Source: an uncultured Candidatus Saccharibacteria bacterium (GTDB taxonomy: Bacteria; Patescibacteriota; Saccharimonadia; Saccharimonadales; CAIOMD01). Taken from it: a stretch of DNA of 64,000 nucleotides. This document shows positions 554-30,718 of the stretch, piece after piece (within the stretch, counting starts at the first letter, position 1; each line of letters starts with the position of its first letter). The DNA lies in the NCBI GenBank assembly GCA_964566135.1, contig CAZMHM010000001.1, forward strand, positions 69,829 through 133,828, written 5' to 3'. The position numbers and the translations under genes were made by a program. The notes under the pieces are model-generated. The model saw only the letters and a program-made list of their open reading frames with translations. It was not told the DNA's origin and searched no databases.

Positions 554-609
554 AAGGTTATGCTTGACCACTGTTTTAAAAGAGATGCAAATTTGGTACA
601 CTAAAAGCC

Positions 610-1275: not shown

Positions 1276-1290
1276 GCATTGGAGCCACTA

Positions 1291-1992: not shown

Positions 1993-1995
1993 CTG

Positions 1996-2613: not shown

Positions 2614-2700
2614 CTACCAGTAATTGTACGACAACGCGTACATATACCAAATTCAGATGGGTACTACTCAGGCCACAACAAACTATATATAATACTGCTA

Positions 2701-3816: not shown

Positions 3817-5412
3817 TTATTCGATCTCTGGTAAGTGAGGGTATACGTGCATTGCGGGTGTCGTAACGTTTCGACCCTTCCAAATGACTTCGCCGAACTC
3901 GTAGCGGTACATAGAAATATGCAGTGCTACAAAATCAATCAACACAACGATAGGGAAGTTCACTGGTGCTAACCAGGCTGCTACCGGGTTAGTTACAAGA
4001 GCAACAGCTAAATTTGAACCAACGAGCATCACGATGCTTAGCGCTGTCATTACGATGACAGCAACCGAGCCGTCAGCTGCCAGTATTAGGGGCAGCAAGA
4101 TAAATGGCGTAACCAAAAAGTAGAGCATAATTAGCACCCGCAGTGCGGCGAATTCTGGGCGACGATGGGCTTCTGGGTACCGCGTTCGGACAGCAGTAAG
4201 CCACTGGCTTCTAAAGTCTTTATGCGTTGTGATGTTTAAATCATCATTAGTACGAACAAAAGCATATGCCTGTTCTTTGCCAAAACGGGTGCTCAGGATT
4301 TCTTCTGGGACTATAGCTCGAGTTACGGCCTTAAAACCTCCCGCATCGAGCAATGCTTGCCGGCTTGCAACCCAGCTTGTACTGAGTACCGGCTCGTGTT
4401 TTATAACCCACTTTGGCAGCGCTAGCTCCCACCAATAGCGCATAGGTTGGATGAAGGCCGCTAAGATACCGCTGTGAGTGCGTTTAGGTAATACACTAAG
4501 CATCGTTACGTTTTTTGCCGTAAAGACCTCTACGAGCTTGCGTAGTGAGGTCTGATGCAGGCGGACATCAACACCCATGTACACGATTACCTCGCCAGAG
4601 GCTTCCTCTAGGAGTGTTTGATAGGCTGCATTTTTTGCTAACCAGGTTTTGTTGGGCTCTATACCTTGCACGAACCTAACGCCGTCATGCGCGAAGCTTT
4701 TGATGATATCTGCAGTATGGTCTTGCGAGCAATCATCAAGCACAATAATTTCTAGTTTTGGATAATCGCTTGCAAGCGCAGATTCTAGGCATTGCCGCAA
4801 CACGTCGTTTTCATTACGTGCAGCGATTGCAAGTGTTACCGTTGGCAACTCTTTATCACTTAATGGTTTGCCGCTAGTGACCCTGGTTTTAAGAATAGAT
4901 CTGACAGACGTCGCAAATATATAAGCGCTTGCAATCAATAAGCTTGCGCCTATCAACAGAAATGCCACATTACTTGAGATAATGCCCGGATATACACGAA
5001 CTACGTACCACGCGGCAATTGTTAGAGACTGCGTTCCACCAAGCCAAGCAAAACTTCGTACCGTTACACGACGCAAATACTGTTCGTGCATACGATTTTC
5101 AATTAAACGCAACAGGTTAATAGCTCGATATACCATCAGTAGCGCTAGTAGCACCGTACCGGCACTAAATGCTTCCGCCAAAAAGATTCCGACACTAAAG
5201 CCAGAAATTATCAGACTAAATCCGGCTAAAAACTTTTTTGCTCGCCAGCCGACTTTTGTTACATGAATTAATGTTTCTGCGATAAGTCCTAACGCAAAAC
5301 ATATGGCCGCTACCCCAAGAGTATTTATTTCCATTATTACTGTAAGTTTATCATAAGCGATATCTAACGCAGTTATACTGCCTATGCTTGCAGCTCGGCT
5401 GATTACTGCCAT
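3817..5412 (-). CDS. membrane-embedded family-2 glycosyltransferase
   Basis: TVTLAIAARNE...IIVLDDCSQD GT2 signature flanked by multiple TM helices on both sides. Start uncertain (GTG 5439, ATG 5412 or ATG 5334). Confidence 0.65.
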   Translation of the reverse strand: MAVISRAASIGSITALDIAYDKLTVIMEINTLGVAAICFALGLIAETLIHVTKVGWRAKKFLAGFSLIISGFSVGIFLAEAFSAGTVLLALLMVYRAINLLRLIENRMHEQYLRRVTVRSFAWLGGTQSLTIAAWYVVRVYPGIISSNVAFLLIGASLLIASAYIFATSVRSILKTRVTSGKPLSDKELPTVTLAIAARNENDVLRQCLESALASDYPKLEIIVLDDCSQDHTADIIKSFAHDGVRFVQGIEPNKTWLAKNAAYQTLLEEASGEVIVYMGVDVRLHQTSLRKLVEVFTAKNVTMLSVLPKRTHSGILAAFIQPMRYWWELALPKWVIKHEPVLSTSWVASRQALLDAGGFKAVTRAIVPEEILSTRFGKEQAYAFVRTNDDLNITTHKDFRSQWLTAVRTRYPEAHRRPEFAALRVLIMLYFLVTPFILLPLILAADGSVAVIVMTALSIVMLVGSNLAVALVTNPVAAWLAPVNFPIVVLIDFVALHISMYRYEFGEVIWKGRNVTTPAMHVYPHLPEIE

Positions 5413-8111: not shown

Positions 8112-8129
8112 GACATATTGGATTGTTAC
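8112..8129. repeat. left arm of perfect 18-bp inverted repeat (GACATATTGGATTGTTAC)
   Basis: Exact reverse complement of 9748..9765; sits at the boundary where GC content jumps. Confidence 0.9.
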
Positions 8130-8138
8130 GATCCCGAA

Positions 8139-8170
8139 GGGGGAGGCCGTCATCGCTGACAGCCTCCCCC
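8139..8170 (-). terminator. GC-rich terminator-like hairpin immediately downstream of the cassette gene
   Basis: GGGGGAGGC (8139-8147) pairs with GCCTCCCCC (8162-8170), starting 15 nt after the stop codon. No U-tract, which is the style of high-GC organisms. Confidence 0.5.
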
Positions 8171-8184
8171 TTGTGGGTTCTGGT

Positions 8185-9642
8185 TCAGGCAGCCGTGACG
8201 GTGACCTGTCCCAGGGTGATGTCCTTCAGGAGCTGGGTGTGAGCCGCGTCGCGGTAGGCCTTGAAGCCCACCACTACGGTCACGGTCTGCCCCTTGATGA
8301 CACCGAACTGGTCGAGCGGGACGTTGGTCGTTCCACCCGTGGTCAGGTTCGTGTTGACGGTCTTGTCACCGATGGTGACCGTTCCGACGTAGAACCTGAT
8401 GCTGGCGGGCACCGTGAAGGTGACGTTGCTCACCGAGCAGCTTGCGCAACCCAGCGACACCGTCACCGTGGCACCTGCCCACGGCGGGCAGACGATCTCG
8501 ACCGGCGAACCGATCTTGACGTATGCCGACGTGCAGACACCCTTCACGGAGATGCAGTAGGACGCTTGAAGCTTCATCCCGTCAGGGAGCTTCTTGACGA
8601 CCGAACCACACGAACCACCGTTGACCGTGAGTACGGCAACGGCCTTACCGGTCGCAACGTCAGTCCAGGTCCAGTGCTGCTGGCTTGCACCAGCAGGCAC
8701 ACAGGCCGGCTTGAGCGTCACAGTGGCGACTCCGTAGCAGTTGGTCGTGCACTGCGCCACGACGGCCGGACGAGCCGGCTGACCGCCGACAGTCCACTTG
8801 GTCGTGTAGTTGACCATGAAACCGCCGATGAGCAACCGCTGCGTGCCGGGTGCGGCCACCGTGAAGGTAGCCTTGAGCCAGCTCGGCGCAACAGCGACGA
8901 CAGACCCGTGAGGGTAGCCGACGCCGGTACGCGTCACAACGGTTGATGCCATGCCCTTGCTGTTGGTGACAGCCACCTTGCGGCTCAGCGTGCCGTTGGC
9001 GACGCTGAACGTGACCTTGATACCAGCCGGGGCAGGCAGACCAGCCGTCGTCGTCAGACGAGCGACGATGGTTGCATGCTGTCCGGGCAGGATCTTGGCG
9101 GGGGAGACGGTCGAAGTGAGCTTGTAGGGCCCAGTCTTCTGCGTCAGCATCATCTTGACCTTGGCCTGGACCGACGAACTCACCTTGTGGTTCGTGACGA
9201 GCCAGGCGTAGTACTTCTGCAGAGGCTTGTCACCCCGCAGAATCCAGTAGCTGAACGCAAGCGCCGCAGCTACATCCTTGTTCGTCGTGCGTACGTACTG
9301 GTTGACGAGCATCTTTGCTCGCGCCGAGTTCGCAGCGGTCATCCCCGGGATGTTCCCGGTGACGATGAACGAGCTCTTGCTGATGCCGGCACTCTTCATC
9401 GAGTCCGAGCAAAGCCCGAGCTCGAGTTCGTGCCTCCAGGTGTAGGCGTACACCGGCTTGGCGTAGCCGAGCTTGGGTGCGGCCGGGTAGATGATGCCCA
9501 AGTAGGGCTTGGCGTAGACGGTTGCAGCACTGGCCGGAGCCGCGGTCGTGACGGACACGACAGCGACAACACCAGCGACCATGGCGATGGATGCGAGGCT
9601 GGCTACTCCACGAAGGAACAGCCGGCGCAGCGTCTCATACAC
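8185..9642 (-). CDS. secreted Cys-rich protein with twin-arginine-type signal peptide and Ig-like (Big-like) middle region; high-GC foreign-looking gene
   Basis: GTG at 9642 is preceded by GGAGGAGCAGAAAGGAAG. N-terminus VYETLRRLFLRGVASLASIAMVAGVVAVVSVTTAAPASA/A fits (S/T)RRxFL plus an h-region and AxA. The beta-rich segment ATIVARLTTTAGLPAPAGIKVTFSVANG resembles bacterial Ig-like domains. Nine Cys fall in the C-terminal third. Codons are strongly GC3-biased, unlike neighbouring genes. Confidence 0.75.
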   Translation of the reverse strand: MYETLRRLFLRGVASLASIAMVAGVVAVVSVTTAAPASAATVYAKPYLGIIYPAAPKLGYAKPVYAYTWRHELELGLCSDSMKSAGISKSSFIVTGNIPGMTAANSARAKMLVNQYVRTTNKDVAAALAFSYWILRGDKPLQKYYAWLVTNHKVSSSVQAKVKMMLTQKTGPYKLTSTVSPAKILPGQHATIVARLTTTAGLPAPAGIKVTFSVANGTLSRKVAVTNSKGMASTVVTRTGVGYPHGSVVAVAPSWLKATFTVAAPGTQRLLIGGFMVNYTTKWTVGGQPARPAVVAQCTTNCYGVATVTLKPACVPAGASQQHWTWTDVATGKAVAVLTVNGGSCGSVVKKLPDGMKLQASYCISVKGVCTSAYVKIGSPVEIVCPPWAGATVTVSLGCASCSVSNVTFTVPASIRFYVGTVTIGDKTVNTNLTTGGTTNVPLDQFGVIKGQTVTVVVGFKAYRDAAHTQLLKDITLGQVTVTAA

Positions 9643-9695
9643 AATGCACTTCCTTTCTGCTCCTCCGAAGAGGGCAAAGGACTCTACCACCAGTT

Positions 9696-9742
9696 GGCAG
9701 AGTACACACAAACCCACCATATGTGCTTGTGTGTACTCTGCC
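9696..9742. promoter_or_regulatory. perfect 16-bp-arm palindrome upstream of the cassette gene (operator or hairpin)
   Basis: GGCAGAGTACACACAA (9696-9711) and TTGTGTGTACTCTGCC (9727-9742) are exact reverse complements with a 15-nt loop. It lies between the right IR and the GTG start and overlaps a TTGTGT...TAGAGT promoter-like pair on the minus strand. Confidence 0.5.
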
Positions 9743-9747
9743 GATGT

Positions 9748-9765
9748 GTAACAATCCAATATGTC
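9748..9765. repeat. right arm of perfect 18-bp inverted repeat (GTAACAATCCAATATGTC)
   Basis: Exact reverse complement of 8112..8129. Confidence 0.9.
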
Positions 9766-9903
9766 AAAGTGCGTGCCTCGTAAAGCGAGCTAAACTGGCA
9801 TCGCGCCTCTGATGTTACTCATAAAACCATGAGCAATTTCAGAGTATATATACTATAGCATAAATATGTATATTTTGCAAGATATACGAGCATAATATTG
9901 CAG

Positions 9904-9933
9904 TTGATGCAAGCACTATAACTGTGGTAGAAT
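9904..9933 (+). promoter_or_regulatory. putative sigma70-type promoter for rplK
   Basis: TTGATG (9904-9909), 18-nt spacer, then TGG-TAGAAT (extended -10, 9928-9933), about 95 nt upstream of rplK. Confidence 0.4.
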
Positions 9934-10028
9934 ACTTGGGTTACGCACTTCTATTTACTTTTAACAAATGGAAGGAGAGTAAGTAGGCACGCTTCAACAC
10001 GCCGAACACTCGAACGAAAGGATTTATC

Positions 10029-10457
10029 ATGGCAAAGCCCGTAAAGGCTAATTTAAAAATGAAAATTAAAGGCGGCCAAGCATCGGCAGCTCCTCCAGTA
10101 GGTAGCTCACTTGGTCAGCACGGTGTAAACATGATGGATTTTATTAATCCATTTAATGAATCTACCAAAGATCGCATGGGTCAAAACTTGACTGTGCACA
10201 TCACTATTTACGAAGATCGTACTATGGACTGGCGTATCGTTGGCACCCCAACTGACGACCTTATTCGAGCTAAGTTAAGCATCGATAAAGGTTCCGGCCG
10301 TCCAAATACCGAAAAAGTTAGCAAAAAGCTTACCGATACTCAGTTAACTGAGATAGCAGAAGCTAAAGCATCTGACATGAATACCGATGATATCCCAGCC
10401 GTGAAAAAAATGGTTGCCGGTACTGCTCGCAGTATGGGTGTCGAAATAGAGGGCTAA
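10029..10457 (+). CDS. rplK: 50S ribosomal protein L11
   Basis: KIKGGQASAAPPVGSSLGQHGVN matches the L11 N-terminal signature; 142 aa. Confidence 0.95.
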   Translation: MAKPVKANLKMKIKGGQASAAPPVGSSLGQHGVNMMDFINPFNESTKDRMGQNLTVHITIYEDRTMDWRIVGTPTDDLIRAKLSIDKGSGRPNTEKVSKKLTDTQLTEIAEAKASDMNTDDIPAVKKMVAGTARSMGVEIEG

Positions 10458-10458
10458 T

Positions 10459-10800
10459 ATGGCAACAACCGAAGGCTTTCCATCATCCAGCAGTAACTCA
10501 CAAAGAGATATCAATGAAGCTTTGTGGGAACAAGCAGTGGATGACGGAGCAAGCACTGGCGACTATGGCCCAGCACAAGTAATTGAGCTTACCCGTAAGC
10601 TTGACTTGCTAAGCCCGCAGATAGCAGCGGTTACTGCAGCCCAGGAACATCTCAAAGCAACCGTCGACTTTTTAGTGAAAGAAGCATATGACGACGGTAG
10701 GCCAGATAGGGACATCCTAAGCCATAAAGACTACCTTACGGCACGTGAACGGCTGTTAGCAGCCGAGCAGGCCCTACAGGAAGCATCAGCAAGAGTGTAA
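10459..10800 (+). CDS. hypothetical acidic coiled-coil protein inserted between rplK and rplA
   Basis: ATG lies 1 nt after the rplK stop, with GAGGG SD inside the rplK 3' end; 113 aa; no motif recognised. Confidence 0.5.
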   Translation: MATTEGFPSSSSNSQRDINEALWEQAVDDGASTGDYGPAQVIELTRKLDLLSPQIAAVTAAQEHLKATVDFLVKEAYDDGRPDRDILSHKDYLTARERLLAAEQALQEASARV

Positions 10801-10859
10801 ATTAATACGTAATTTGTGGGAGGCCATATGGCCGCTACGACCACGAAAGGACAACAATT

Positions 10860-11921
10860 ATGGCAGAAGCCAAGAAACCATCAAAGAAAGAAGAGCTATT
10901 AGCAGAAGCAAAGAAGCTAAAGCTAAGTGTATCTGCAAAAAACACTATTGTTCAGATAGAAGAAGCAATTGCAGAAGCTAAGGCAGCAAAACAGTCTACT
11001 GCTAAGGTAGCTGAACTCGTAGAAACCGAAGCTATTGCAGAGGCAATTGTCGAAGCAGAAGCAGAGATTGATGCCGAAGAAGCTAAGACTACTAAGGCTG
11101 GTAAGCACAGCGCTAAGGGACTTAAAGAGGCAGAAGAAAAAGCTGCAAAAGAAGAACGCAAAGCACACGCATCAGAAGCTAAAGCCGAAGAAGCAGCTAA
11201 GCCAAAAGTAATTATCAAAAGTCGTTCTCGTTTAGAGCGACAAGGCAAGAAGTTCCGCGCAGCGAGTGAACTTATTGATAAGACAAAAGAATATTCACTT
11301 AAAGAAGCACTTGAGCTTGCTATCAAGACAAGCCCAGTAAAATTTGATGCAACTGTAGAGTTGCACATTAAGCTTGGTGTTGACCCACGTCACGCTGACC
11401 AAAACTTGCGCGCTAATCTTGTATTGCCAGCAGGTACTGGTAAGAAGGTAACGATTGCAGTGTTAGCTGAAGCTGATGATGCAGCTGCAGCTCTAAAAGC
11501 TGGTGCTGATATCGCTGGTAGCGACGACTTAATGGCGCAACTTGATAAAGGTCTAATTAACTTCGACGTGCTAATCGCAACTCCAGCAATGATGCCAAAG
11601 CTTGGTAAGTACGCACGTGTCCTTGGCCCTAAGGGTCTTATGCCTAGCCCAAAGAGTGGCACAGTAACACCAGATGTTGCTAAAGCTGTTTCTGAAGCTA
11701 AAGCAGGACGTGTAGAATACCGTGTCGATAGCACCGGTATTGTCCATCTTGGTATCGGTAAAGTAAGTTTTGGCGCTGACAAGCTAGACCAAAACGCAAA
11801 GGCCGTACTAACGAGTATCCGTGGCGCGAAGCCAGCGAGCATTAAGGGCAACTATGTACAGTCTATCTACGTTACAAGTAGCATGGGCCCAAGCGTAAAA
11901 GTCCTTTCAAGCGAAATCTAA
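10860..11921 (+). CDS. rplA: 50S ribosomal protein L1 with ~120-aa Lys/Glu/Ala-rich N-terminal extension
   Basis: The canonical L1 core begins near residue 123 (KFRAASELIDKTKEYSLKEALE...LGVDPRHADQNLRANLVLPAGTGK). No canonical start codon lies near the core, so the extension is in-frame from the ATG with AAAGGA RBS. Confidence 0.9.
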   Translation: MAEAKKPSKKEELLAEAKKLKLSVSAKNTIVQIEEAIAEAKAAKQSTAKVAELVETEAIAEAIVEAEAEIDAEEAKTTKAGKHSAKGLKEAEEKAAKEERKAHASEAKAEEAAKPKVIIKSRSRLERQGKKFRAASELIDKTKEYSLKEALELAIKTSPVKFDATVELHIKLGVDPRHADQNLRANLVLPAGTGKKVTIAVLAEADDAAAALKAGADIAGSDDLMAQLDKGLINFDVLIATPAMMPKLGKYARVLGPKGLMPSPKSGTVTPDVAKAVSEAKAGRVEYRVDSTGIVHLGIGKVSFGADKLDQNAKAVLTSIRGAKPASIKGNYVQSIYVTSSMGPSVKVLSSEI

Positions 11922-11945
11922 ATACAGAACTTCGATTGACTTTAA

Positions 11946-11976
11946 TAGCCCCACAGTAATGTGGGGCTATTTTTTT
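11946..11976 (+). terminator. intrinsic terminator after rplA
   Basis: TAGCCCCAC-agtaat-GTGGGGCTA followed by TTTTTTT; overlaps the stop codon of the convergent gene. Confidence 0.7.
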
Positions 11977-13610
11977 ACTTGCATGGCGCGGTTAAGCGAA
12001 TTCATAGCACGGCTAAAACCAACTATGCCGTCTTGGTAGGCAATATATCTGTTACGCCATTCTGGGTCGAACTTGCTTTTAAAGCGTGCGAGGCCGGTAA
12101 ATCCAAAGAATCTGTTACCGTTTTGATAGACAAACTTCATAAAGTTAGTAATAACCGTAGTAGACTCATCGATATCGTCAATACCGACTAGCGGGCACAA
12201 GCCAAGATTGGCTGTTTCAAAACCTTGTTCTTCGATTGCTTTAAAGAAACTAATGAACATAAAATCATTTACATTTGGTGGTGCCGTAGCCTGGTGGCGC
12301 ATTAAGTCGACATTAGCCTCTGTTTTTGTGCCGGGAACTTGATTGGTAAAGGCAATGATTTCACCAGCTTCATTCTTAACGATAAGGATTGAGCAGCGAT
12401 TGATATATTCTGAATCAAAATAGCCAAGCATAAAGCTTCGCTCTGACTTACCGGGTAGCGTTAGCCAGCTATCAGACACCTCGCGTAGCGTCTGTACGAA
12501 CGAATCAGAAAAAGGTGGTGCGACCAGCTCGGCCGTAAAACCTTGCTTATCAAAGCGGTTCTTAACATTCCTAAAGTGCTTATTGCGAACAGTGACCGTA
12601 TTAAAGTGCTCAATCTTTATGATTGCCTCTTGTCCAAGTTTTTGGAGCTCAAATCCTAAATCCATCAATTGCTGCCGATAGGTGCTATCGATGTGCACAA
12701 ATGAAACGGTCCAGTCATTGATATGACATTCGTCAACAAACAGTTTTAGCAATTTTGGGATATCTGCCTCATTGCCCACCGGGTTACCAACTACCAAAGC
12801 AATGCCGCTCACGACCTTATAGGCGAGCGCCGACTCTCGATAGAAATAATAGTGCTTGTCGGCTGGCCAAATTTTAAAGAAGTCTTCGCTGTCACGGGAG
12901 TATTTTTCAAGTAGCGCTAGCATCGCTTCACGGTTTGAGGTTTGGTCGACATATGATTGTTTGATTGGCCCAAATAACGATATAAGCACATATGCGTAGG
13001 TCATCAGCGTCATAATATATAGCGAGTCTAAAAACAGATTGCCCGCTAGATTACGGGAGGTAAATTGCTCAGTAACAATACCAAATGCGTCAACAGTAGA
13101 TACGACTGCCGAGCTAAGCGTTACTTCCGTATCAAACGAACGTGCATCGAGCAGCATAAAGCCGAGCACCCCGTACACAAACATTAATGCAAGCGCCAAA
13201 ATAGCATTTCGAGATGCAACCTTAAGACTACTAATGCCGCTTTTAACAATAAAGTCACGCCGATATCGCATAAGCCCATAGAGCCCGATAGTTGCCAAGA
13301 ATGCGTCGAATAACTCGAGCGTAAAGAGACTACTCAATAAGTAGAATCCAAAGAGTACTACCGTAACGTACCATGCACTACGTTTTCGACGGCGCAATAA
13401 CAACGATAAATATATAAATGATAGTCCCGCTATGAGTGGTGCTGTTTGTGTTAGTTGAAATGGCACTAAATCTTGTGCCGTATCCCGCACTAGTGGCACT
13501 TTCGTAAATAACACTTCAAGTATTAGCGAAACACCAACAAGTAGTACAAAAACAGAAACTATCTTGATTGAAAGCTGCTCGGGTAACTTAATTTTTTGCA
13601 TTATCAACAT
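11967..13610 (-). CDS. aminoacyl-phosphatidylglycerol synthase-like protein (MprF C-terminal/DUF2156 type) with N-terminal TM domain
   Basis: About 6 N-terminal TM helices, then a soluble domain with ALAYKVVSGIALVVGNPVG, SERSFMLGYF and GLARFKSKFDPEWRNRYIAY, characteristic of the lysyl/alanyl-PG synthase domain. AGGAG RBS. Confidence 0.65.
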   Translation of the reverse strand: MLIMQKIKLPEQLSIKIVSVFVLLVGVSLILEVLFTKVPLVRDTAQDLVPFQLTQTAPLIAGLSFIYLSLLLRRRKRSAWYVTVVLFGFYLLSSLFTLELFDAFLATIGLYGLMRYRRDFIVKSGISSLKVASRNAILALALMFVYGVLGFMLLDARSFDTEVTLSSAVVSTVDAFGIVTEQFTSRNLAGNLFLDSLYIMTLMTYAYVLISLFGPIKQSYVDQTSNREAMLALLEKYSRDSEDFFKIWPADKHYYFYRESALAYKVVSGIALVVGNPVGNEADIPKLLKLFVDECHINDWTVSFVHIDSTYRQQLMDLGFELQKLGQEAIIKIEHFNTVTVRNKHFRNVKNRFDKQGFTAELVAPPFSDSFVQTLREVSDSWLTLPGKSERSFMLGYFDSEYINRCSILIVKNEAGEIIAFTNQVPGTKTEANVDLMRHQATAPPNVNDFMFISFFKAIEEQGFETANLGLCPLVGIDDIDESTTVITNFMKFVYQNGNRFFGFTGLARFKSKFDPEWRNRYIAYQDGIVGFSRAMNSLNRAMQVKK

Positions 13611-13732
13611 TGTAAACGACTCCTATAATATCTGCATCAAAAACTACAACAGACAGGCACTATTTGTTTGCTATTATTAAAGCAAAGGGTGGGAAACAAA
13701 AACGCAAAATAACGGATGAGGGAGCCAGTGGT

Positions 13733-14446
13733 ATGGGGGTATATAGTAATAAGCAAATTAGGCAGGCCCTAAAAGAGGGTCATATTGTTTGTCATCCGTT
13801 TAACGAGAAACATGTAAGCCACGCGAGCCTTGACGTCACACTTGGCTATTATTTTTATAGGGTCGAAAACGCCAATGAACGCGTTATGTATAACCCATTT
13901 GACCGCGAGGACGTCGAGCGTTATTTTGATGGGCCGTATAAGGCAGTCCCTCACAAGCAGTGGTGTGAACTTAATGGTCTTAAATTACAGCGCGGTATCC
14001 CAGAGGATCACCCAGTAATTGCACTTAAGCCTGGTGAGCGCATATTGGCGCATACGCATGAATTTTTTGGCATTAAACCGCCTGGTGCTTATGAGATAAA
14101 AAGCCGCTCGAGCTGGGGCAGAAATGGCGTAGCGGTATGCTTTGATGCCGGCTGGGTTGACCCAGGGTATATTAATCGTCTAACTCTTGAAATTTTTAAT
14201 CTGAATCAACGCGAAACAATCCTGCTCCCCGTCGGCGAGCGTATTGCCCAGGCTGTGTTTTACGAAACGGGTGAGGTGGAAGGAAATTATGGCGAAGGCA
14301 GGGACGGCGGCTTTAGTGGCAAATATCAACAGGGTACTGATTTACAGACTATTATCCCGTCGTGGTCACCAGACCAAATGCTACCTAAGGCATATCGTGA
14401 TTCACGAAACATGCCGGTAAAGATTGAGGGTTTGAGCTATGAGTAA
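13733..14446 (+). CDS. dcd: dCTP deaminase family protein (dUTPase fold), longer than typical
   Basis: N-terminal SNKQIRQALKEGHIVCHPF and core SRSSWGRNGVAVCFDAGWVDPGYINRLTLEIFNLN...GERIAQAVF match the Dcd/Dut fold. ATG has GAGGGAG SD; the track start 13664 is TTG. Confidence 0.75.
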   Translation: MGVYSNKQIRQALKEGHIVCHPFNEKHVSHASLDVTLGYYFYRVENANERVMYNPFDREDVERYFDGPYKAVPHKQWCELNGLKLQRGIPEDHPVIALKPGERILAHTHEFFGIKPPGAYEIKSRSSWGRNGVAVCFDAGWVDPGYINRLTLEIFNLNQRETILLPVGERIAQAVFYETGEVEGNYGEGRDGGFSGKYQQGTDLQTIIPSWSPDQMLPKAYRDSRNMPVKIEGLSYE

Positions 14447-16739
14447 ACTGCATGGGTTATACGTGGTGCTCGAGGGGCCGCAAGGAGTCGGTAAAACAAC
14501 ACAGATTGAGTTGTTGGCTGTTCGACTGCGCAAAGAAGGCTATATTGTTCGGCAGTTTCGCGAACCAGACAGCCAAAGTGATTTAACTGCTCGGGCAATC
14601 AGGGCACTCACACAAGATATCCGTTACCCAATGAATACCCGCACAGAAGTCTTGCTATACAATGCGGCTCGCTCGCAATCGCTCGAAGTTATTCGTAAAG
14701 CTCGTGCTCAGGGCGTCGTGTGCCTGGTTGATCGTAATTATTTGACGACACTGGCTATTCAGTATTACGGACGTGGTGATGTACCTGATTACGACACAAT
14801 CAATAGCATTATTAGCTTTGCTGTTAATGATATGGAGCCCGACATTACGGTTATTCTTGATGCGCCCGTAATGACGCTACGCGAACGTGCTGTCGAACGC
14901 GGTCAAGGCGAGCGGTTCGATAATTTGAACATCGAGTTTTTAGAGCGAGTACGAACCGGATATCTTATAGAAGCCAAGCAACGAAATCTGCCAGTTATCA
15001 CTGCGCTTGGCTCCGCACAAGAAATTAACGATGAAATTTGGGGTTTGTTGCATGGCAAAGAAATCAGCGCCAAACATGTAGCGGCTGCCGCCCCACCGGC
15101 AGAACTACGTAAGTCAGAAGTGCCGGAAAAACCATTGCAAACCAGTGACCTCATTATAAAAACTGATACAGGCTTTGAAATTACAAAGGCTGGCAACGAG
15201 TATCTGCAAAAGGCAGTTACCAATACCGCAGGTAATGTATACGCGTTTACTGACCACTTTAGCCCTGTAACAATTGCTGCAGCCATGGCACGGCTCAGCC
15301 GCCGCGCTGATGATATGCGAATTACACTGTTGGATGAATTTGCTGCGAACGCCGGCAAAGACGAGGAATTGTTGCAACGCGTAATCACAGCCTATGGTGA
15401 CGACTCGGTACAGCAACTTGTTGGCCAGCATGTCGTGGTAGAGGGCGCTAGTAACTTATTAACAAAAAAACTTGAATGGGGTAGGCTTGCTGCCTATCTA
15501 GAACAATCAACGCGTTACATTTACTTTGACCAGAAAGACGAACAAGGCAATTATCGCTATGTTGTTCCGTCAAACTTCAGTAAAAAAACAAAAACGGCTT
15601 ATATTAAGACGCTCGATACAATATTCGATAAGTACTCTGAGATGGTTCGTAAGCTTACGGATTACGTTCGGGCTAGCTCAGACACACCCAAAGAACAGCA
15701 GGATGGTGCCTGGATGGCCGCTACCCGCGCACAAGCGTGTGATGCTATACGCCCTGTTTTACCGGTTGCCACAAAATCTACTGTAGGAATTTACGCATCT
15801 GGGCAAGCACTTGAAAGCCTTATTATGCATCTACTCGGCGATGACCTACCTGAGGCTCGCGAGGTTGGCGAACAATTACTTCGTGAATCACGCAAAGTAG
15901 TACCAACATTTTTAGAGCGTGCAGATAAGCCTGAGCGAGGCGGTGCAACCATAGCGTATCAAGCAAATAAGCGCCAAGAGGTCAAAAAACTCGCCGACGA
16001 ACTATTGACCGCAAATCATGCTCCACAATCCGAAGATGTAACGTTAACTGATGTTTGGCCACGTAACGAGCTCGATATTGTTGCCGATATGCTGTATGAA
16101 CACTCTCATTTACCGCTCGAGTCAATTCGTCAAGAAGTCTCGAATTGGTCGTATAAGCAAAAACTAGATGTATTTAACGCCTATATAGGCGAACGATTGA
16201 ATCGTCGGCATCGCCCAGGCCGAGCACTGGAAAAAATTCATTACAGCTGGGATTTAGTGTGTGATTATGGCATATTCCGCGATTTACAACGGCATCGCAT
16301 TGTTGATGACTTAGAATGGCAGTTGCTTACACCTCGCTATGGCTATGAAATTCCAATGCTTGTTGAACAGGCGGGCCTTGCCGAGCCATTTTTGGACTGT
16401 TTCGACCTGAGCCTAGAGCTATATAGTTTGCTACAGGGCGCTGGCCATGAACTTGAAGCGCAATACGCAACACTGCTCGGCCATAAAATGCGCTGGAAGG
16501 TCACCTACAATGCGCGTGAGGCGTTCCATCTCCACGAGTTGCGCACAAGCCCGGCCGGTCACCCAGGTTACCGTAAGCTAGTGCTACAGATGCACGAACA
16601 ATTGCTACAGGTACATCCGTTACTCGGTGAGGCTATGAAATTCGTTAATTCAGATGAAGATCCAGCGCTAACTAGACTTGCAGCCGAACGATACACGCAA
16701 TTTAAATTACAAAAATTACAAAATACTAAGAAAATTTAG
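14439..16739 (+). CDS. fusion protein: thymidylate kinase (N-terminal) plus long tandem-type FAD-dependent thymidylate synthase ThyX (C-terminal)
   Basis: Tmk: VVLEGPQGVGKTTQ P-loop and DRNYLTTLAIQ. ThyX-like: first half EQSTRYIYF, second half DLQRHRIVDD...TPRYGY and FHLHELRTSPAGHPGYR. The start overlaps the dcd stop by 8 nt. Confidence 0.7.
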   Translation: MSKLHGLYVVLEGPQGVGKTTQIELLAVRLRKEGYIVRQFREPDSQSDLTARAIRALTQDIRYPMNTRTEVLLYNAARSQSLEVIRKARAQGVVCLVDRNYLTTLAIQYYGRGDVPDYDTINSIISFAVNDMEPDITVILDAPVMTLRERAVERGQGERFDNLNIEFLERVRTGYLIEAKQRNLPVITALGSAQEINDEIWGLLHGKEISAKHVAAAAPPAELRKSEVPEKPLQTSDLIIKTDTGFEITKAGNEYLQKAVTNTAGNVYAFTDHFSPVTIAAAMARLSRRADDMRITLLDEFAANAGKDEELLQRVITAYGDDSVQQLVGQHVVVEGASNLLTKKLEWGRLAAYLEQSTRYIYFDQKDEQGNYRYVVPSNFSKKTKTAYIKTLDTIFDKYSEMVRKLTDYVRASSDTPKEQQDGAWMAATRAQACDAIRPVLPVATKSTVGIYASGQALESLIMHLLGDDLPEAREVGEQLLRESRKVVPTFLERADKPERGGATIAYQANKRQEVKKLADELLTANHAPQSEDVTLTDVWPRNELDIVADMLYEHSHLPLESIRQEVSNWSYKQKLDVFNAYIGERLNRRHRPGRALEKIHYSWDLVCDYGIFRDLQRHRIVDDLEWQLLTPRYGYEIPMLVEQAGLAEPFLDCFDLSLELYSLLQGAGHELEAQYATLLGHKMRWKVTYNAREAFHLHELRTSPAGHPGYRKLVLQMHEQLLQVHPLLGEAMKFVNSDEDPALTRLAAERYTQFKLQKLQNTKKI

Positions 16740-16749
16740 GTGTTCACGG

Positions 16750-16845
16750 GCGGGCCCGCGAAGCATTTGAATCATCCGGGTTGCGGATTCATTCATCAGT
16801 TTTGTCAGGATCGCTGACAAATACTGTGCTTCGCTAGGCCCGCCA
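16750..16845. other. ~96-nt nested inverted-repeat element (three-way-junction-like); candidate structured RNA or DNA-level site (oriT/att-like)
   Basis: The outer stem GGCGGGCC-c-GC-GAAGCA (16750-16766) pairs with TGCTTC-GC-ta-GGCCCGCC (16828-16845). It encloses hairpin TGAATC/GATTCA (16769-16792) and hairpin TTTGTCAG/CTGACAAA (16802-16822). Sits at the left edge of the second high-GC islet. Confidence 0.4.
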
Positions 16846-16869
16846 CGTTGGTGCGAACGGGTGTTGTTA

Positions 16870-17001
16870 TCACGGGAGAGGCTCGTCCTTCGCCTTGTCG
16901 GTTGCCTCCGTAACAGCCTCGAACCCGAATGCTTTGGCGATTGCCGGGTCGAGAAGTGCGACGATTGCGCCGCTAGAAAGATCGGAAGTTCCTCCGCACA
17001 T
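16870..17001 (-). CDS. small ORF (43 aa, MCGGTSDLSSGAIVALLDPAIAKAFGFEAVTEATDKAKDEPLP) coupled downstream of the wHTH gene
   Basis: Translated by hand; too short for the supplied ORF track. GGAG lies 6 nt upstream of the ATG and 14 nt after the wHTH stop. GC-rich like its neighbour. Confidence 0.35.
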   Translation of the reverse strand: MCGGTSDLSSGAIVALLDPAIAKAFGFEAVTEATDKAKDEPLP

Positions 17002-17015
17002 ATGCCGCTCCGTTT

Positions 17016-17246
17016 CTAGCTAGCCTCTGCTAGCTTGGCAATCCAGGTTCCGTCGGGCTTGCCAACGACAACCACCTTGTTGCTTGCTTCGAGTACGCCA
17101 CTGACCGTAGCGCTGCTGATGTTGAGCTTTGCAGCAATCTTGCCGCAAAGTCTGGCGTGGCTCCCCACGGCCACAAACGGCCCGTCTGCCAGCAGTGTCA
17201 AGACACGCTTGCTGTCTTTGACACTCGGCGATTGCTTCTTACCCAT
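17016..17246 (-). CDS. small winged-helix/HTH DNA-binding protein (76 aa) in high-GC islet
   Basis: MGKKQSPS...RLCGKIAAKLNISSATVSGVLEASNKVVVVGKPDGTW reads as helix-turn-helix followed by a beta wing. An internal ATG is preferred over the track start 17330. Confidence 0.5.
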   Translation of the reverse strand: MGKKQSPSVKDSKRVLTLLADGPFVAVGSHARLCGKIAAKLNISSATVSGVLEASNKVVVVGKPDGTWIAKLAEAS

Positions 17247-17270
17247 GATTATGCACCACCCATCTCGCAT

Positions 17271-17297
17271 GTCTGCGCACGGCTTTCGCACGCAGAC
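17271..17297. promoter_or_regulatory. palindrome upstream of the wHTH gene (possible autoregulatory operator)
   Basis: GTCTGCG (17271-17277) and CGCAGAC (17291-17297) flank a 13-nt GC-rich spacer, 25-50 nt upstream of the ATG at 17246. Confidence 0.3.
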
Positions 17298-17329
17298 TTC
17301 GAGATATGTGGCTAGATTGTTAAATAGCA

Positions 17330-17358
17330 AAACCGGGTTCTTTGTTGGAACCCGGTTT
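17330..17358 (-). terminator. intrinsic terminator (likely for the GGDEF gene)
   Basis: AAACCGGGTTC-tttgttg-GAACCCGGTTT; on the minus strand it is followed by TTTTGCTATTT. Confidence 0.5.
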
Positions 17359-17484
17359 ATTGAAATTTCTAACGTTAAACAGGCCCCAATTACGAGTCAA
17401 TAAGTAGTAGACCACACATAATGGCCTGCTTGCTTGTGATGACGTAATTGAAACGAGTCATGTGTATAGTTTTACTTGTTTTGA

Positions 17485-18252
17485 TTATGGTTTGTCAACC
17501 GTTAGCTCTTTAGGTGTCAAAATTCCCTCAGGGCTTCTCGTTAAAACAAATGTTGATTGCGTGCGAACTTTTGGGTCAGCGTCAGCAATAATATCGGCAT
17601 AACTACGGTGCACTGTTGGATCGATAATTGTCACAGAACCGCGAATACCAAAGCCATCAACACGTAATTCGTTTAGTAAATCAACCAGACGTCCATTTGT
17701 TACAACCCTAAATAATTTTTCACGAAGAATAGCAATCGGATCAACATCGCTAAAGGGTTTGTCATCACGCAGTAAGGCTGCAAACTCATCACCGCCAATT
17801 CGATACGCATCAGAATCGAAGGTATAATCTCCGTTGCCTAGCAGGTAAAGTCCATCGGTGTACGTTGAATGTGAGGTTCGAATTGAGTTAAGCAATGCTT
17901 GCGCAGCGAGCGATATTACCTCGTCACCTATGCTTTGCCCGAACTGAATATTAAACTCGCCGAACTTGACAAGGTCGGTGGCGATAAGCATACCGTAAAC
18001 TGATTCGCTAGTAAGCAACGAATCTATGGCATGTTCAAGCATAATCTGTTGGCCAAGCTTTGTCTTGGTATCGATAACAGACTGCTCTAGCAGTGATGCC
18101 AAACCTAAATCACCAAGTAACATGAGCTGCTGCCGGGCATGGGTAGCGTGTTCGCCTCCGCTACGTAATTCCTGGATAAGTCGAGGCACGTTTAAATGAG
18201 GCTGTTCACCTCCACTGCGTCTGTTCTCTTGTGTCTTCGGTATGTCTGTCAT
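17485..18252 (-). CDS. GGDEF-domain protein (putative diguanylate cyclase)
   Basis: YRIGGDEFAALL active-site motif, upstream DLVKFGEFNIQFGQSIGDEVI and DTKTKLGQQ. ATG 18252 is preferred over TTG 18270. Confidence 0.75.
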   Translation of the reverse strand: MTDIPKTQENRRSGGEQPHLNVPRLIQELRSGGEHATHARQQLMLLGDLGLASLLEQSVIDTKTKLGQQIMLEHAIDSLLTSESVYGMLIATDLVKFGEFNIQFGQSIGDEVISLAAQALLNSIRTSHSTYTDGLYLLGNGDYTFDSDAYRIGGDEFAALLRDDKPFSDVDPIAILREKLFRVVTNGRLVDLLNELRVDGFGIRGSVTIIDPTVHRSYADIIADADPKVRTQSTFVLTRSPEGILTPKELTVDKP

Positions 18253-18400
18253 AAAAAAATAACCTGGCAAAAACCAGGTAATTAATACTAATTTCCGGTT
18301 TCGCTACTAGCTCAACATATACCAAGCGGCCAATTACAGTATATGTTTCATCGCTTCAAAAACTACAATACTATATTAATTAAGATTCGTCAATATATGT

Positions 18401-18429
18401 TTGACTATACATACTGTATCTGTTAATAT
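18401..18429 (+). promoter_or_regulatory. sigma70-type promoter for the rplJL operon
   Basis: TTGACT (18401-18406), 17-nt spacer, TAATAT (18424-18429). Confidence 0.55.
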
Positions 18430-18435
18430 TACATA

Positions 18436-18598
18436 GATTTACCAAAGACAGCGACGGGGAAACCTTGATAATGTCGCCGAGGTGAGAACAATCTGTTTTC
18501 TACTAGTAAACTTTGGTGAATGTTGCCAAAGTTTTTTATTTGGTAACAAACACATTTACAAATTGGTCGATTGTAAATAACTAAACAGGAACTATTCT
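18436..18598 (+). promoter_or_regulatory. rplJ 5' leader with attenuator hairpin (L10-leader-like)
   Basis: Long structured 5' UTR: CGACG...tgTCGCCG stem, then ACTTTGG-tgaatgttg-CCAAAGT followed by TTTTTT (18510-18538) about 60 nt before the rplJ ATG. Position and terminator-type design fit L10(L12)4 autoregulatory leaders; no covariance-model check was possible. Confidence 0.4.
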
Positions 18599-19120
18599 AT
18601 GGCTTTAAGCAAAGAACAGAAGACTGCAGTTATTGCTGACCTTACCGACCTTCTTACCGGCTCTAAGATGACCGTTGTTGCCCAATATAAGGGTATGACC
18701 GTTAAATCTATGCAAGCCTTGCGTAAAGAAGCAAAAGGTAATGGCACAGCAGTAAAAGTAGTAAAAAATCGTTTGGTAAAACAAGCGCTAACCGGTGTCG
18801 ATACTCTTAAGGGAGTTGACGTTGCTGCGTTAGAGGGTCAGCTTTTATACGCATTTAACGATGCAGACGAAGTTGCTCCAGCAAAAGTCTTAAGTGACTA
18901 TGCAAAAAAAGAACCAGCTTTACAATTTGTAGGCGCAATTACAGCCGAAGGTACATTCATTAGTGCCGACGAAGTAAAAGCACTTGCAAGCTTGCCAAGC
19001 AAGAACCAACTTATCGCTGGTATCATCAACACCTTGCAATCGCCAGTACGCAACACTATGAGCGCACTAAATGGCAATTTGCATGGTTACTTACAGGCTA
19101 TTGAAGCCTCTAAGGCATAA
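18599..19120 (+). CDS. rplJ: 50S ribosomal protein L10
   Basis: MALSKEQKTAVIADL...VVAQYKGMTVKSMQALRKEAK is typical L10; followed by rplL. Confidence 0.95.
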   Translation: MALSKEQKTAVIADLTDLLTGSKMTVVAQYKGMTVKSMQALRKEAKGNGTAVKVVKNRLVKQALTGVDTLKGVDVAALEGQLLYAFNDADEVAPAKVLSDYAKKEPALQFVGAITAEGTFISADEVKALASLPSKNQLIAGIINTLQSPVRNTMSALNGNLHGYLQAIEASKA

Positions 19121-19148
19121 CTAAGAACTAACTTACAAAGGAACTATC

Positions 19149-19529
19149 ATGGCAGATTTAAAGAAACTTGCTGAACAATTAGTTAATCTAACTGTTCTAG
19201 AAGTAAACGAACTCGGTACTATCTTAAAAGACGAATATAACATCGAACCTGCTGCTGCGGCTGTTGCAGTTGCTGCACCTGCTGCTGGTGGCGAAGCCGC
19301 TGCTGCTGCAGACGAAAAGAGCGAATACGATGTTGTTCTTAAGGATGCAGGTGCTCAGAAGGTAGCTGTTATCAAGGCTGTTAAAGAAATCACTGGCTTA
19401 GGTCTTGGCGAAGCTAAGGCATTAGTTGATGGTGCTCCAAAGACTATCCTTGAAAAGGCTAAGAAGGAAGATGCAGAAGCAGCTAAAAAAGCTTTGGAAG
19501 AAGCTGGCGCTGTTTCAGAACTTGTTTAA
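19149..19529 (+). CDS. rplL: 50S ribosomal protein L7/L12
   Basis: Ala-rich hinge plus C-terminal [28 protein letters not shown] signature. Confidence 0.95.
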
Positions 19530-28068: not shown

Positions 28069-29490
28069 ATGCTGAAGTTCTACAATACAAAGACAAGACG
28101 AATTGACGAATTCACTCCTATCAGTGATGGCACAGTGTTGCTCTATACCTGTGGCCCAACCGTTTACAATTATTTACATGTTGGCAACTGGGTCGCGTAT
28201 ATCCGTTGGGACAGCCTGGTTCGTACGCTGACTGCCAGCGGTTACGATGTTGTGAGAGTTATGAACATAACAGACGTAGGGCACCTTGTGAGCGATGCTG
28301 ATGACGGTGAAGACAAAATGGAAAAAGGTGCCAAGCGCGAAGGAAAGACAGCTTGGGAAGTCGCTAAAATGTACGGCGATGATTTTTTGGCCGGTATGGA
28401 AAAACTGCAACTGATTAAGCCAACATATATTACCAAAGCTACCGATTACATCCCCGAGCAACTTGCTCTTGTCCGCAAACTCAAAGAAAAGGGTTATACC
28501 TATCAAATTGATGACGGTATCTATTTTGATACAAGTAAGTTCCCAACCTATGCAGATTTTGCACGACTTGACTTAGACGAACTAAAAGAGGGAGCACGTG
28601 TAGACTTTAACCCTCAAAAGCGCAATGCTAGTGACTTTGCGTTATGGAAGTTTAGCCCAGCAGGTGAAACGCGCGATATGGAATGGGATACGCCTGTAGA
28701 TTTATTGGACGAAGCCGAAACCCGAAAAGGCTTTCCGGGGTGGCATCTAGAATGTAGTGCTATGGCCATGGATAAATTGGCAGAGACAATCGACATCCAT
28801 ACGGGTGGAATTGACCATATCCCGGTGCACCACACCAACGAGATTGCGCAAAGCGAAGCAGCGACAGGTAAGCCGTTCGCAAATTATTGGCTTCATAATA
28901 ACTTTTTACTTGTTGACGGAACAAAGGTGAGCAAAAGCCTGGGCAACACGTACGAACTAAAAGACTTAGCCGAAAAGGGTTTTACACCCGAGGATTTTCG
29001 CCTATTTGTATTGCAAAGCCATTATCAGAGCGAAAGTAACTTTACATGGGAAAACCTCCAAGGTGCCAAGAACCGCTTGCAGGGCTACAGGGCTATGGCT
29101 CAAATGCGTTTCCAGCCACAACTAGGCCAAGATGCTGTTGACTTTAATAGTGCATATCAAGCGATTCTACAGGCCTTCCAAGACGATCTTAACTCGCCAG
29201 TTGCCTTGCAAATACTAAGCGATGTCAGCAGCCGAGTGGATGAAAATGGCATTGCGGCAGGCGATAGCGAAGCATTTGAAACATTTCTTGTTAAACTTGA
29301 TGCACTTTTGGGCACAACACTATCCCACGAACAAGATATTTCTGAATCACAGAAAAAGATTATCGATTCACGCCAAAGCGCGCGCGATGCGAAAGACTGG
29401 GCTACTTCTGATACATTACGTGACGAACTAGCTAAAGATGGCATCTCTGTCCGTGATACGCCAGCTGGCCCTATCTGGTCACGAAAATAG
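28069..29490 (+). CDS. cysS: cysteine--tRNA ligase
   Basis: HVGN (HIGH-type) and KVSKSLGN (KMSKS-type) motifs, plus WHLECSAM zinc/cysteine-binding region. Confidence 0.95.
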   Translation: MLKFYNTKTRRIDEFTPISDGTVLLYTCGPTVYNYLHVGNWVAYIRWDSLVRTLTASGYDVVRVMNITDVGHLVSDADDGEDKMEKGAKREGKTAWEVAKMYGDDFLAGMEKLQLIKPTYITKATDYIPEQLALVRKLKEKGYTYQIDDGIYFDTSKFPTYADFARLDLDELKEGARVDFNPQKRNASDFALWKFSPAGETRDMEWDTPVDLLDEAETRKGFPGWHLECSAMAMDKLAETIDIHTGGIDHIPVHHTNEIAQSEAATGKPFANYWLHNNFLLVDGTKVSKSLGNTYELKDLAEKGFTPEDFRLFVLQSHYQSESNFTWENLQGAKNRLQGYRAMAQMRFQPQLGQDAVDFNSAYQAILQAFQDDLNSPVALQILSDVSSRVDENGIAAGDSEAFETFLVKLDALLGTTLSHEQDISESQKKIIDSRQSARDAKDWATSDTLRDELAKDGISVRDTPAGPIWSRK

Positions 29491-29565
29491 ATAAATTTTA
29501 CAGCAGGTGTTTTTAGGTATCTGCGGTAGAATAGTTTTTGACTGTAAAAATAAACAAGGTACTTT

Positions 29566-30630: not shown

Positions 30631-30718
30631 CAATCATTTAGATATGCTATGATGTATCGAGAATTGTTTTCGAGGTTACATCAGAAAACACAATAATTAA
30701 TTATTGAGGGTATGTCAC

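Follow-up and report, generated by a model that had tools for sequence, protein, structure and literature searches.

The 64,000-nucleotide (nt) segment of a Saccharimonadales genome (Saccharibacteria, candidate phyla radiation) analyzed here, referred to as a whole as the window, is ∼44% GC and contains a GC-rich islet (islet 2; 16740-17330) immediately after the stop codon of a tmk-thyX fusion gene, raising the question of whether such a compositional outlier is a foreign insertion or a resident part of the genome. An initial annotation offered two readings of it, a remnant of a foreign high-GC mobile element or a regulator/small-peptide pair. We find that islet 2 is, on balance, probably a vertically inherited mini-operon that is specific to one clade of Saccharimonadales and carries a structured RNA at each end of its mRNA. 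Its constant core consists of a 46-nt stem-loop in the 5′ untranslated region (UTR) at the Shine-Dalgarno (SD) sequence, an orphan winged-helix (wHTH) protein of 74 to 80 amino acids (aa), and a three-way junction (3WJ) of ∼100 nt at the 3′ end. A literature search found no description of this module.

The GC-rich islet reported after the thyX stop is a clear outlier. The earlier hand count of 35 G or C among the 60 nt of 16861-16920 is reproduced, and islet 2 as a whole is 55.8% GC compared with 44.4 ± 2.4% in other 591-bp windows (z = 4.7). Its trinucleotide distance from the background is 0.38, and that of control windows is 0.20 ± 0.04 (maximum, 0.30). In 400-bp windows, a GC content greater than the median plus 4 median absolute deviations is found in islet 2 and in one other place, islet 1 (see below). 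The GC content at third codon positions (GC3) is 0.675 in the 76-aa wHTH open reading frame (ORF) and 0.614 in the 43-codon ORF that follows it, compared with a mean of 0.41 for the 56 genes of the window and a maximum elsewhere of 0.48, when islet 1 (0.80) is set aside.

Neither the locus nor the composition is peculiar to the window. Contigs were retrieved for all nine clusters of the wHTH family, and in these the gene lies between rplJ (usually with a GGDEF gene) and a convergent tmk-thyX fusion; in the L085/L090 lineage, a rearranged and likewise convergent Tmk-like gene of 502 aa takes the place of the fusion, and the wHTH module and 3WJ hold their position beside it despite the rearrangement. 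The module thus co-occurs as a unit at one locus. Carriers have RplJ proteins that are 77 to 90% identical to that of the window, whereas the 80 Saccharimonadales loci taken from GTDB (L003-L082) have at most 66% identity, and both the wHTH protein and the 3WJ RNA are absent from all 80. Among carriers, the wHTH and rplJ identities to the window fall together (54/87, 49/83, 44/78, and 35/77%), with a pairwise Spearman rho of 0.56 for the two divergences. The initial annotation held that conservation of this locus with the same composition across the lineage would speak against a foreign remnant, and the same position and the same raised GC are found in every related lineage recovered. In the L085 and L090 contigs (8470-12178 and 573-4446, respectively), the fusion is replaced by the 502-aa Tmk-like protein, a separate or fused DCD-Tmk, and a separate Thy1.

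The persistence of the high GC content is also informative. GC3 of the wHTH gene is 0.49 to 0.69 in all eight lineages, compared with 0.25 to 0.44 for neighboring genes. Between the window and the relative L001, 53% of the thyX third positions differ, which is near saturation, and a wHTH GC3 of ∼0.65 is kept in both. Because the high GC persists in lineages with saturated synonymous sites, the composition of islet 2 does not derive from a recent donor, and its GC-richness is actively maintained rather than recently imported. In each of the eight lineages, the wHTH coding sequence folds somewhat more stably than its dinucleotide shuffles, with z of −1.3 to −3.2; the values for three control segments are −1.1 to +1.1. 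A conserved RNA structure inside the coding sequence was considered as the cause of the high GC and rejected, as RNAalifold gives no shared structure (−6.9 kcal/mol).

The 5′ stem-loop spans 17306..17261 on the minus strand and has 20 pairs, and its top is the palindrome GTCTGCG...CGCAGAC described in the initial annotation, a 27-bp duplex (GTCTGCGTGCGAAAGCCGTGCGCAGAC; 17271-17297) that occurs once in the window. The 3′ base of the stem adjoins an SD-like GGGUGG, 9 to 15 nt before the wHTH ATG. The 20 pairs of the RNAalifold consensus are nearly all paired in nine sequences. Counted over 24 pairs (the 20 core pairs plus four added outer pairs, out of register), double-sided changes occur in 11 of 24, and 86% of the cells are paired compared with 24 to 51% when the partners are slid. 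The covariation score is 0.355 versus 0.174 in shuffles, and none of 500 shuffles reaches it. Because G·U cells far exceed A·C cells (23 and 3, respectively), the stem folds as RNA, read from the operon strand. The near relative L103 retains only 8 of 11 positions of the DNA palindrome, and its RNA stem is still fully paired through U·G. An RNA stem-loop accounts for the palindrome better than a simple DNA operator does. The top of the stem is an alternating purine-pyrimidine tract in which the positions G-N-CUG...CAG-N-C are invariant and symmetric, which suggests sequence-specific recognition by a dimer, on either DNA or RNA.

The nested inverted-repeat element noted at the other end of the islet is the 3WJ (16746..16848, minus strand), which ends 6 nt from the thyX stop codon. 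It is organized with a 3-bp P0, a 1-nt bulge, a long P1, and two hairpins, P2 and P3, and folds with a minimum free energy (MFE) of −59 kcal/mol (z = −8.2 against dinucleotide shuffles); MFE folding gives this same architecture for each of the 11 variants. The window and L001 copies are 93% identical, and the changes lie in loops or junctions or preserve pairing, the latter including two compensatory changes and one from U-A to U·G. In more distant lineages, P1 reads GGCGGGCC/GGCCCGCC, GGUGGGCC/GGCCCACC, GGCAGGCC/GGCCUGCC, or GGCAAGCC/GGCUUGCC, and the P2 sequence is wholly different. The P3 loop CG-N-AACC-CG is invariant, and an A-Y-C-C motif is conserved in the P2 loop. A covariance model of the element (R1) finds exactly one copy in each module-bearing locus (67 to 96 bits) and, with filters off, no second copy in the window.

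Double-sided changes are present in 22 of the 38 pairs of the 3WJ, in alignments of 10 to 12 related sequences fitted to the model. Between 85 and 86% of its cells are paired, compared with 30 to 43% with slid partners, and the covariation score of 0.43 to 0.46 exceeds those of shuffles (0.25 to 0.27; 0 of 500 reach it) and of slid partners (0.07 to 0.16). Compensatory changes are thus in excess of controls in both the 3WJ and the 5′ stem, and as judged from these alignments both structures are under selection to pair. Neither corresponds to a catalogued family. Apart from a spurious edge hit to a long noncoding RNA, none of the 4227 models of Rfam 15 (including the hammerhead, 5S, tetrahydrofolate, purine, and cyclic di-GMP [c-di-GMP] riboswitch families) matches 16746-16848 or 17261-17306 at an E value of ≤10, and neither element has an Rfam match in nine related loci at an E value of ≤1. 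The linker between the stop codon of the small ORF and the 3WJ (UAACAACACCCGUUCGCACCA; 16849..16869, minus strand) is the same as that of L001 at 20 of 21 nt despite the near-saturated thyX synonymous sites and is predicted to be able to lengthen the basal stem (GUUC/GAAC).

Several more familiar identities for the 3WJ were considered and rejected. A type III hammerhead is suggested by CUGAUGA at the junction, which is found in the window copy only; the position reads GCAGAUGA in L001 and CAUGAGCGC or AAUAGGCAG in other lineages, and there is no GAAA strand. A canonical intrinsic terminator would require a U-run, but in no lineage does one lie within ∼10 nt of the element, whichever strand is read, and a terminator scan reports nothing at 16746-16848. 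The stem bases, read directly from the sequence, do not contain the GTTRRRY or RYYYAAC cores of an integron attC site, and no integrase is found among the ORFs beside the 3WJ, the protein-family scan not extending over the rest of the window. Pairing of P3 with the upstream terminator or leader (see below), an idea that originated in an 18-nt, 83% inverted repeat and a shared AACCCGG, gives duplex energies no better than shuffles in six of seven lineages (z of −1.5 to +0.8; L099, −3.1). A metagenome scan with the 19-mer GGCGGGCCTAGCGAAGCAC returned two chance matches on a high-GC, proteobacterium-like contig that shares nothing else with the element.

The 76-aa ORF between the two RNA elements (17246..17016, minus strand) codes for a protein with the motif MG[RK]KxxPSxK...[ST]GGxGRLxGKIA and is, as first annotated, a winged helix. 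The AlphaFold 2 model (pLDDT, 88) has the canonical H1-S1-H2-H3-S2-wing-S3 topology of the superfamily (helices at residues 9 to 21, 30 to 41, and 45 to 54 and strands at 24 to 27, 58 to 62, and 67 to 72), and the top Foldseek matches are all winged helices. These include ArsR/SmtB, MarR, Fur, Zalpha, and ROQ proteins, with ArsR/SmtB the best (CzrA; E = 0.017), and with all E values above 0.01 they reflect generic fold similarity only. The protein matches no Pfam (including the MarR, GerE, and HTH families), PHROG, PADLOC, or PDB-sequence family, even its best Pfam scores, for Sigma70_r3 (14.1 bits; cutoff, 25.3) and MarR (PF01047; 11.8 bits; cutoff, 24.6), being below threshold, and no Pfam family is common to more than one of seven family members (best E = 0.05). 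A word-index search finds one homolog, 71% identical, whose 1.6-kb metagenome contig has the same arrangement beside thyX; an exhaustive HMMER search of 1.84 billion representatives adds five full-length relatives (74 to 77 aa), and a profile search of 5.8 billion proteins gives nine clusters in all. The differences from L001 are concentrated at third codon positions (15, 11, and 34 at the first, second, and third), which indicates purifying selection on the protein.

The 43-codon ORF (MC ORF; MCGGTSD...FGF...PLP) is located 14 nt downstream of the wHTH ORF (17001..16870, minus strand) and has a GGAG SD sequence 8 nt upstream, as reported initially. Its homologs are 39 to 53 aa long, with the consensus MC-x-D-x-S-x-LD-x6-FG and indels in multiples of 3; they occur at this locus only, and GGAG precedes all six copies. 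The MC ORF is probably translated. Because substitutions relative to L001 are even across codon positions (17, 18, and 22), purifying selection on the peptide, which is acidic and not hydrophobic, is weak. Four of the eight lineages (L093, L096, L099, and L100) have a short hairpin in place of the ORF. It is therefore best seen, from its distribution and substitutions, as an accessory, fast-evolving part of the module that is restricted to one subclade including the window. The proposed regulator/small-peptide pair is partly correct, and the wHTH protein and coupled small ORF are both present.

These features are consistent with a simple regulatory scheme. A wHTH dimer would recognize the 2-fold symmetric GNCUG...CAGNC of the stem top, as a DNA operator or an RNA hairpin, and could in this way autoregulate the operon. 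The 5′ stem-loop and 3′ junction may shield the mRNA ends, and the junction could also halt or insulate transcription running against that of thyX. The C-rich loops, AACC in P3 and AYCC in P2, are invariant and would provide for an additional sequence-specific partner, possibly the wHTH protein itself.

A number of observations weigh against the mini-operon interpretation or limit it. The single-transcript layout is a prediction, in that the promoter, operon limits, and RNA ends are all assigned from sequence, and binding of the wHTH protein to the stem top is putative. The 3WJ has no U-tract on either strand and is not a canonical intrinsic terminator, and three of its variants fold as well or better on the opposite strand. 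The covariation comes from ∼12 distinct sequences of a narrow clade, and no conserved structure detected by RNAalifold accounts for the GC-rich wHTH coding sequence. An ancient single acquisition of the module by the ancestor of the clade is also possible.

A second interpretation is that the wHTH protein binds RNA, with the 5′ hairpin, the 3WJ, or both as its ligands and with the 3′ element a stable noncoding RNA (ncRNA) or ribonucleoprotein component that processing would release from the mRNA. Co-occurrence of the protein with both RNAs is strict, the stems covary around a P3 loop and part of P2 that do not change, and the stem-top positions are invariant though RNA pairing tolerates change; moreover, noncoding parts are better kept than the protein (93% nt and 71% aa identity), the stem top alternates purines and pyrimidines, and the generic Foldseek hits include the RNA- or Z-form-binding Roquin ROQ and Zalpha domains. 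However, DNA-binding ArsR/MarR folds rank equally among those matches, the family does not conserve the helix 3 Asn and Tyr through which Zalpha makes contact, and the AYCC motif is missing from the loop of the 5′ hairpin, and we regard this interpretation as rather unlikely. Its fullest form, which we put forward just as tentatively, is an undescribed clade-specific RNA-protein regulatory unit in which the protein binds its own RNAs and selection on RNA structure keeps the GC content high. If so, the 3WJ with its two AYCC loops would be an ncRNA or a protein sponge freed from the mRNA 3′ end, and the unit might be coupled to the c-di-GMP (riboswitch-GGDEF) or dTMP (tmk-thyX) genes. It is somewhat less likely again that the 3WJ works on the other strand or as DNA, whether as a thyX 3′ UTR or terminator, a bidirectional insulator, or a single-stranded DNA site, with its adjacency to the wHTH gene incidental. 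The element lies between two convergent genes, always 5 to 19 nt from the stop codon of the one facing the wHTH gene, and the reverse strand gives a mirror 3WJ of similar energy in several variants. Nonetheless, none of the 80 loci with thyX and no wHTH gene contains it, it stays with the wHTH gene where the neighbor is the 502-aa gene (L085/L090), and the thyX strand has no U-tract. On the operon strand, G·U cells are more numerous than A·C cells, both in the whole element (41 and 23) and in P1 (19 and 6), the z-scores are −8.2 and −7.8 compared with −4.5 and −3.1 on the other, and the mean MFE is 4 kcal/mol lower. Action on the operon strand is thus favored by these sequence comparisons, and only moderately resolved.

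The foreign-remnant explanation, in which DNA from an actinobacterial plasmid, integrative and conjugative element, or phage inserted after thyX, is improbable. In its favor, islet 2 stands clearly apart from the background in both GC and trinucleotide usage, another GC-rich islet, bounded by inverted ends of 18 bp, lies 7 kb off, and the thyX-rplJ gap is variable across the order. Saccharibacteria also live on high-GC Actinobacteria. The locus, architecture, and raised GC are alike in every carrier lineage, however, and divergence broadly follows that of rplJ. We therefore reject a mobile element or genomic island remnant: islet 2 has one fixed locus and no other insertion site, with no flanking repeats, target duplication, or recombinase ORF, and no donor homolog was found, either among phage and plasmid collections searched as DNA and protein, in two pattern scans of viral contigs, or, outside this locus, in the sets of 5.8 and 1.84 billion proteins. 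No motif is shared with islet 1. The least likely of the explanations by far is a two-gene toxin-antitoxin (TA) or defense pair composed of a wHTH antitoxin or regulator and a small toxic peptide. Two small coupled ORFs behind a palindrome, and an upstream micro-ORF with a small hydrophobic-tailed product and a highly structured mRNA (see below), would fit such a pair, but the MC peptide is acidic, weakly constrained, and missing in about half of the lineages that retain the protein and RNAs, and the single fixed locus gives no sign of mobility. PADLOC, Pfam, and PHROG searches of all the small ORFs identify no defense, TA, or phage family, and the absence of an enzyme, recombinase, or toxin from islet 2 in the initial annotation is correct.

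The mini-operon may extend beyond the islet as first delimited. Upstream of the 5′ stem-loop on the minus strand is a sigma-70-like promoter, TTGACA-18 nt-TAAAAC (17469..17498), which is a consensus match only and overlaps the last codons of the GGDEF gene. It is followed by a 23-codon micro-ORF (MTRFNYVITSKQAIMCGLLLIDS; 17390..17461) that has no SD sequence and begins 7 nt after the −10 box, such that it looks leaderless. The spacing of TTGACA is conserved (a spacer of 17 or 18 nt), with a −10-like box 6 to 7 nt before the micro-ORF ATG, in the window and in L085, L091, L101, L100, and L099. The micro-ORF is 22 to 23 codons long across carriers and codes for a small, hydrophobic-tailed peptide that is conserved in L085, L091, L101, and L100, with mostly synonymous changes and one 3-nt indel; the whole ORF also folds as one long consensus hairpin. 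It could be a small protein, a dual-function small RNA, or a leader peptide.

Between the micro-ORF and the 5′ stem-loop, a terminator scan identifies an intrinsic terminator (AAACCGGGUUCC-loop-GGAACCCGGUUUUG; 17358..17330, minus strand), with a GC-rich hairpin and a U-tract, that is nearly invariant in the window and in L085, L091, L101, and L100, the last of which is without the GGDEF gene. It may end the GGDEF/micro-ORF transcript or serve as an attenuator of the wHTH operon, and the promoter, micro-ORF, and terminator together could be a separate small gene or the leader/attenuator of that operon. All three are found in the majority of carriers, but membership of the micro-ORF in the wHTH module is uncertain. 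It is absent in L093 and L096, where a GC-rich (GC3 of 0.67) 68-aa ORF of no family replaces the micro-ORF and terminator (4397-4810 and 180-467, respectively); between this ORF and the 5′ stem-loop lie two very stable hairpins. The functional unit, which extends at least to the stem-loop with its base at 17306, possibly reaches past 17330, as far as 17498.

The setting of the module is itself unusual, as islet 2 lies inside a split rplKA/rplJL cluster. The window gene order is nusG, rplK, rplA, an mprF-like gene, dcd, and the tmk-thyX fusion (14439-16739, plus strand), which is convergent toward islet 2; beyond islet 2 are the GGDEF gene on the minus strand (18270..17485) and, on the plus strand, the L10 leader, rplJ, and rplL. 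The split by dcd and tmk-thyX (10029-19529) is also seen in the 80 GTDB loci, in most of which tblastn finds the order rplK-rplA...dcd...thyX...rplJ-rplL, and the mprF-like gene is present within the cluster in the window and about a quarter of them. Their thyX-rplJ gap, of 0.3 to 5 kb, is a variable hot spot for accessory genes. Directly upstream of the GGDEF gene is a c-di-GMP-II riboswitch (RF01786; 18367..18284, minus strand; 59.7 bits), so that a c-di-GMP-sensing RNA appears to control a c-di-GMP synthase (a GGDEF diguanylate cyclase) in a saccharibacterium. The relative L099 has the same pairing (riboswitch, 1551-1634; gene, 1670-2356), with a riboswitch score of 46.5 bits that is below the gathering score.

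Islet 1 (8112-9765) differs in kind. It is 60 to 65% GC with a GC3 of 0.80, is bounded by a perfect 18-bp inverted repeat (GACATATTGGATTGTTAC) that bounds this segment only, and contains a single 465-aa ORF (9582..8185, minus strand) that looks secreted and has no Pfam match; it looks like an inserted cassette. A tblastn search found no relative of it in the 80 GTDB loci, in which the region upstream of rplK is covered only in part. The initial annotation took the wHTH protein as a candidate regulator of the palindromes in this first cassette, an idea that we do not uphold, as the 18-bp repeat and GTCTGC...GCAGAC are each confined to their own islet. Neither repeat, palindrome, nor 3WJ is shared between the two, with R1 finding only a trivial hairpin in islet 1 (E = 0.23). 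Elsewhere in the window, the cumulative GC skew reaches its maximum at ∼29000-31500, gene orientation there flips from mostly plus to mostly minus, and a 500-bp window at 30.5 to 31 kb falls to 36.6% GC; this region could be a replication terminus or origin.

Islet 2 is a counterexample to horizontal-transfer calls made from composition, in that a +12% GC islet in a reduced, AT-leaning genome is here a module of long-standing vertical descent. It adds an orphan winged-helix family and two candidate RNA families, neither of them with an Rfam counterpart, to what is described for the Saccharibacteria, whose ∼1-Mb genomes have few regulators, such that a conserved, RNA-rich regulatory unit is likely to matter. 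The neighboring riboswitch-controlled GGDEF gene and dTMP synthesis genes offer ideas on regulatory targets. The clade is narrow, and the impact is moderate.

Islet 2 is thus of a known kind, a small regulator operon with structured UTRs, and its members are new, namely the orphan wHTH family and two RNA motifs without database counterparts. It resembles ArsR/SmtB and MarR repressor operons in that the protein has a single-domain H1-S1-H2-H3-wing fold, is coded by the first gene of a short operon, and has a conserved sequence of 2-fold symmetry closely preceding its start codon. However, the protein is only 74 to 80 aa long, is without dimerization helices or a metal/ligand site, and is below the Pfam thresholds, and the "operator" shows wobble pairing and compensatory substitution, as RNA stems typically do. 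Zalpha and ROQ are likewise ∼70-aa winged helices (Foldseek TM-scores of 0.55 to 0.71, normalized by target length), and the nearby hairpin has an alternating purine-pyrimidine stem and most wHTH members have an aromatic residue in the wing. Zalpha contacts Z-form nucleic acid through an Asn and a Tyr that are conserved in its helix 3 and through a Pro-Pro-x-Trp sequence of its wing, whereas helix 3 of the wHTH family (SSATVSGVLE, IATVMGILE, or HSYVVEILY) has no conserved N or Y, the wing aromatic position varies (W, F, Y, or C), and the fold similarity is no better than that to DNA-binding ArsR proteins.

The ends of the mRNA have their own parallels. Other mRNAs are known with a protective 5′ stem-loop or a functional 3′ UTR, including the 5′ stabilizers of the ompA/aprE type and the paired 5′ and 3′ UTRs of icaR in Staphylococcus aureus. 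Islet 2 similarly has a 5′ stem-loop beside its SD sequence and a structured 3′ UTR with C-rich loops, but no significant 5′-3′ complementarity is found in the operon, unlike icaR-type mRNAs, and its 3′ element is a more elaborate three-way junction with invariant loops than stabilizer hairpins are. The 3WJ shares a covarying multistem fold, a narrow phylogenetic range, and a fixed gene association with the orphan structured RNA motifs of Rfam, although it matches none of the models there, and it is located at the 3′ end of its gene, whereas riboswitches and leaders are found at the 5′ end. As a ∼0.6-kb compositional outlier in a variable gap with an imperfect, folded inverted repeat, islet 2 also resembles genomic islets, cassettes like miniature inverted-repeat transposable elements, and attC sites, but it is without terminal repeats, target duplication, recombinase, or R′/R″ core sites, and it occupies a fixed orthologous position at which it codiverges with its host.

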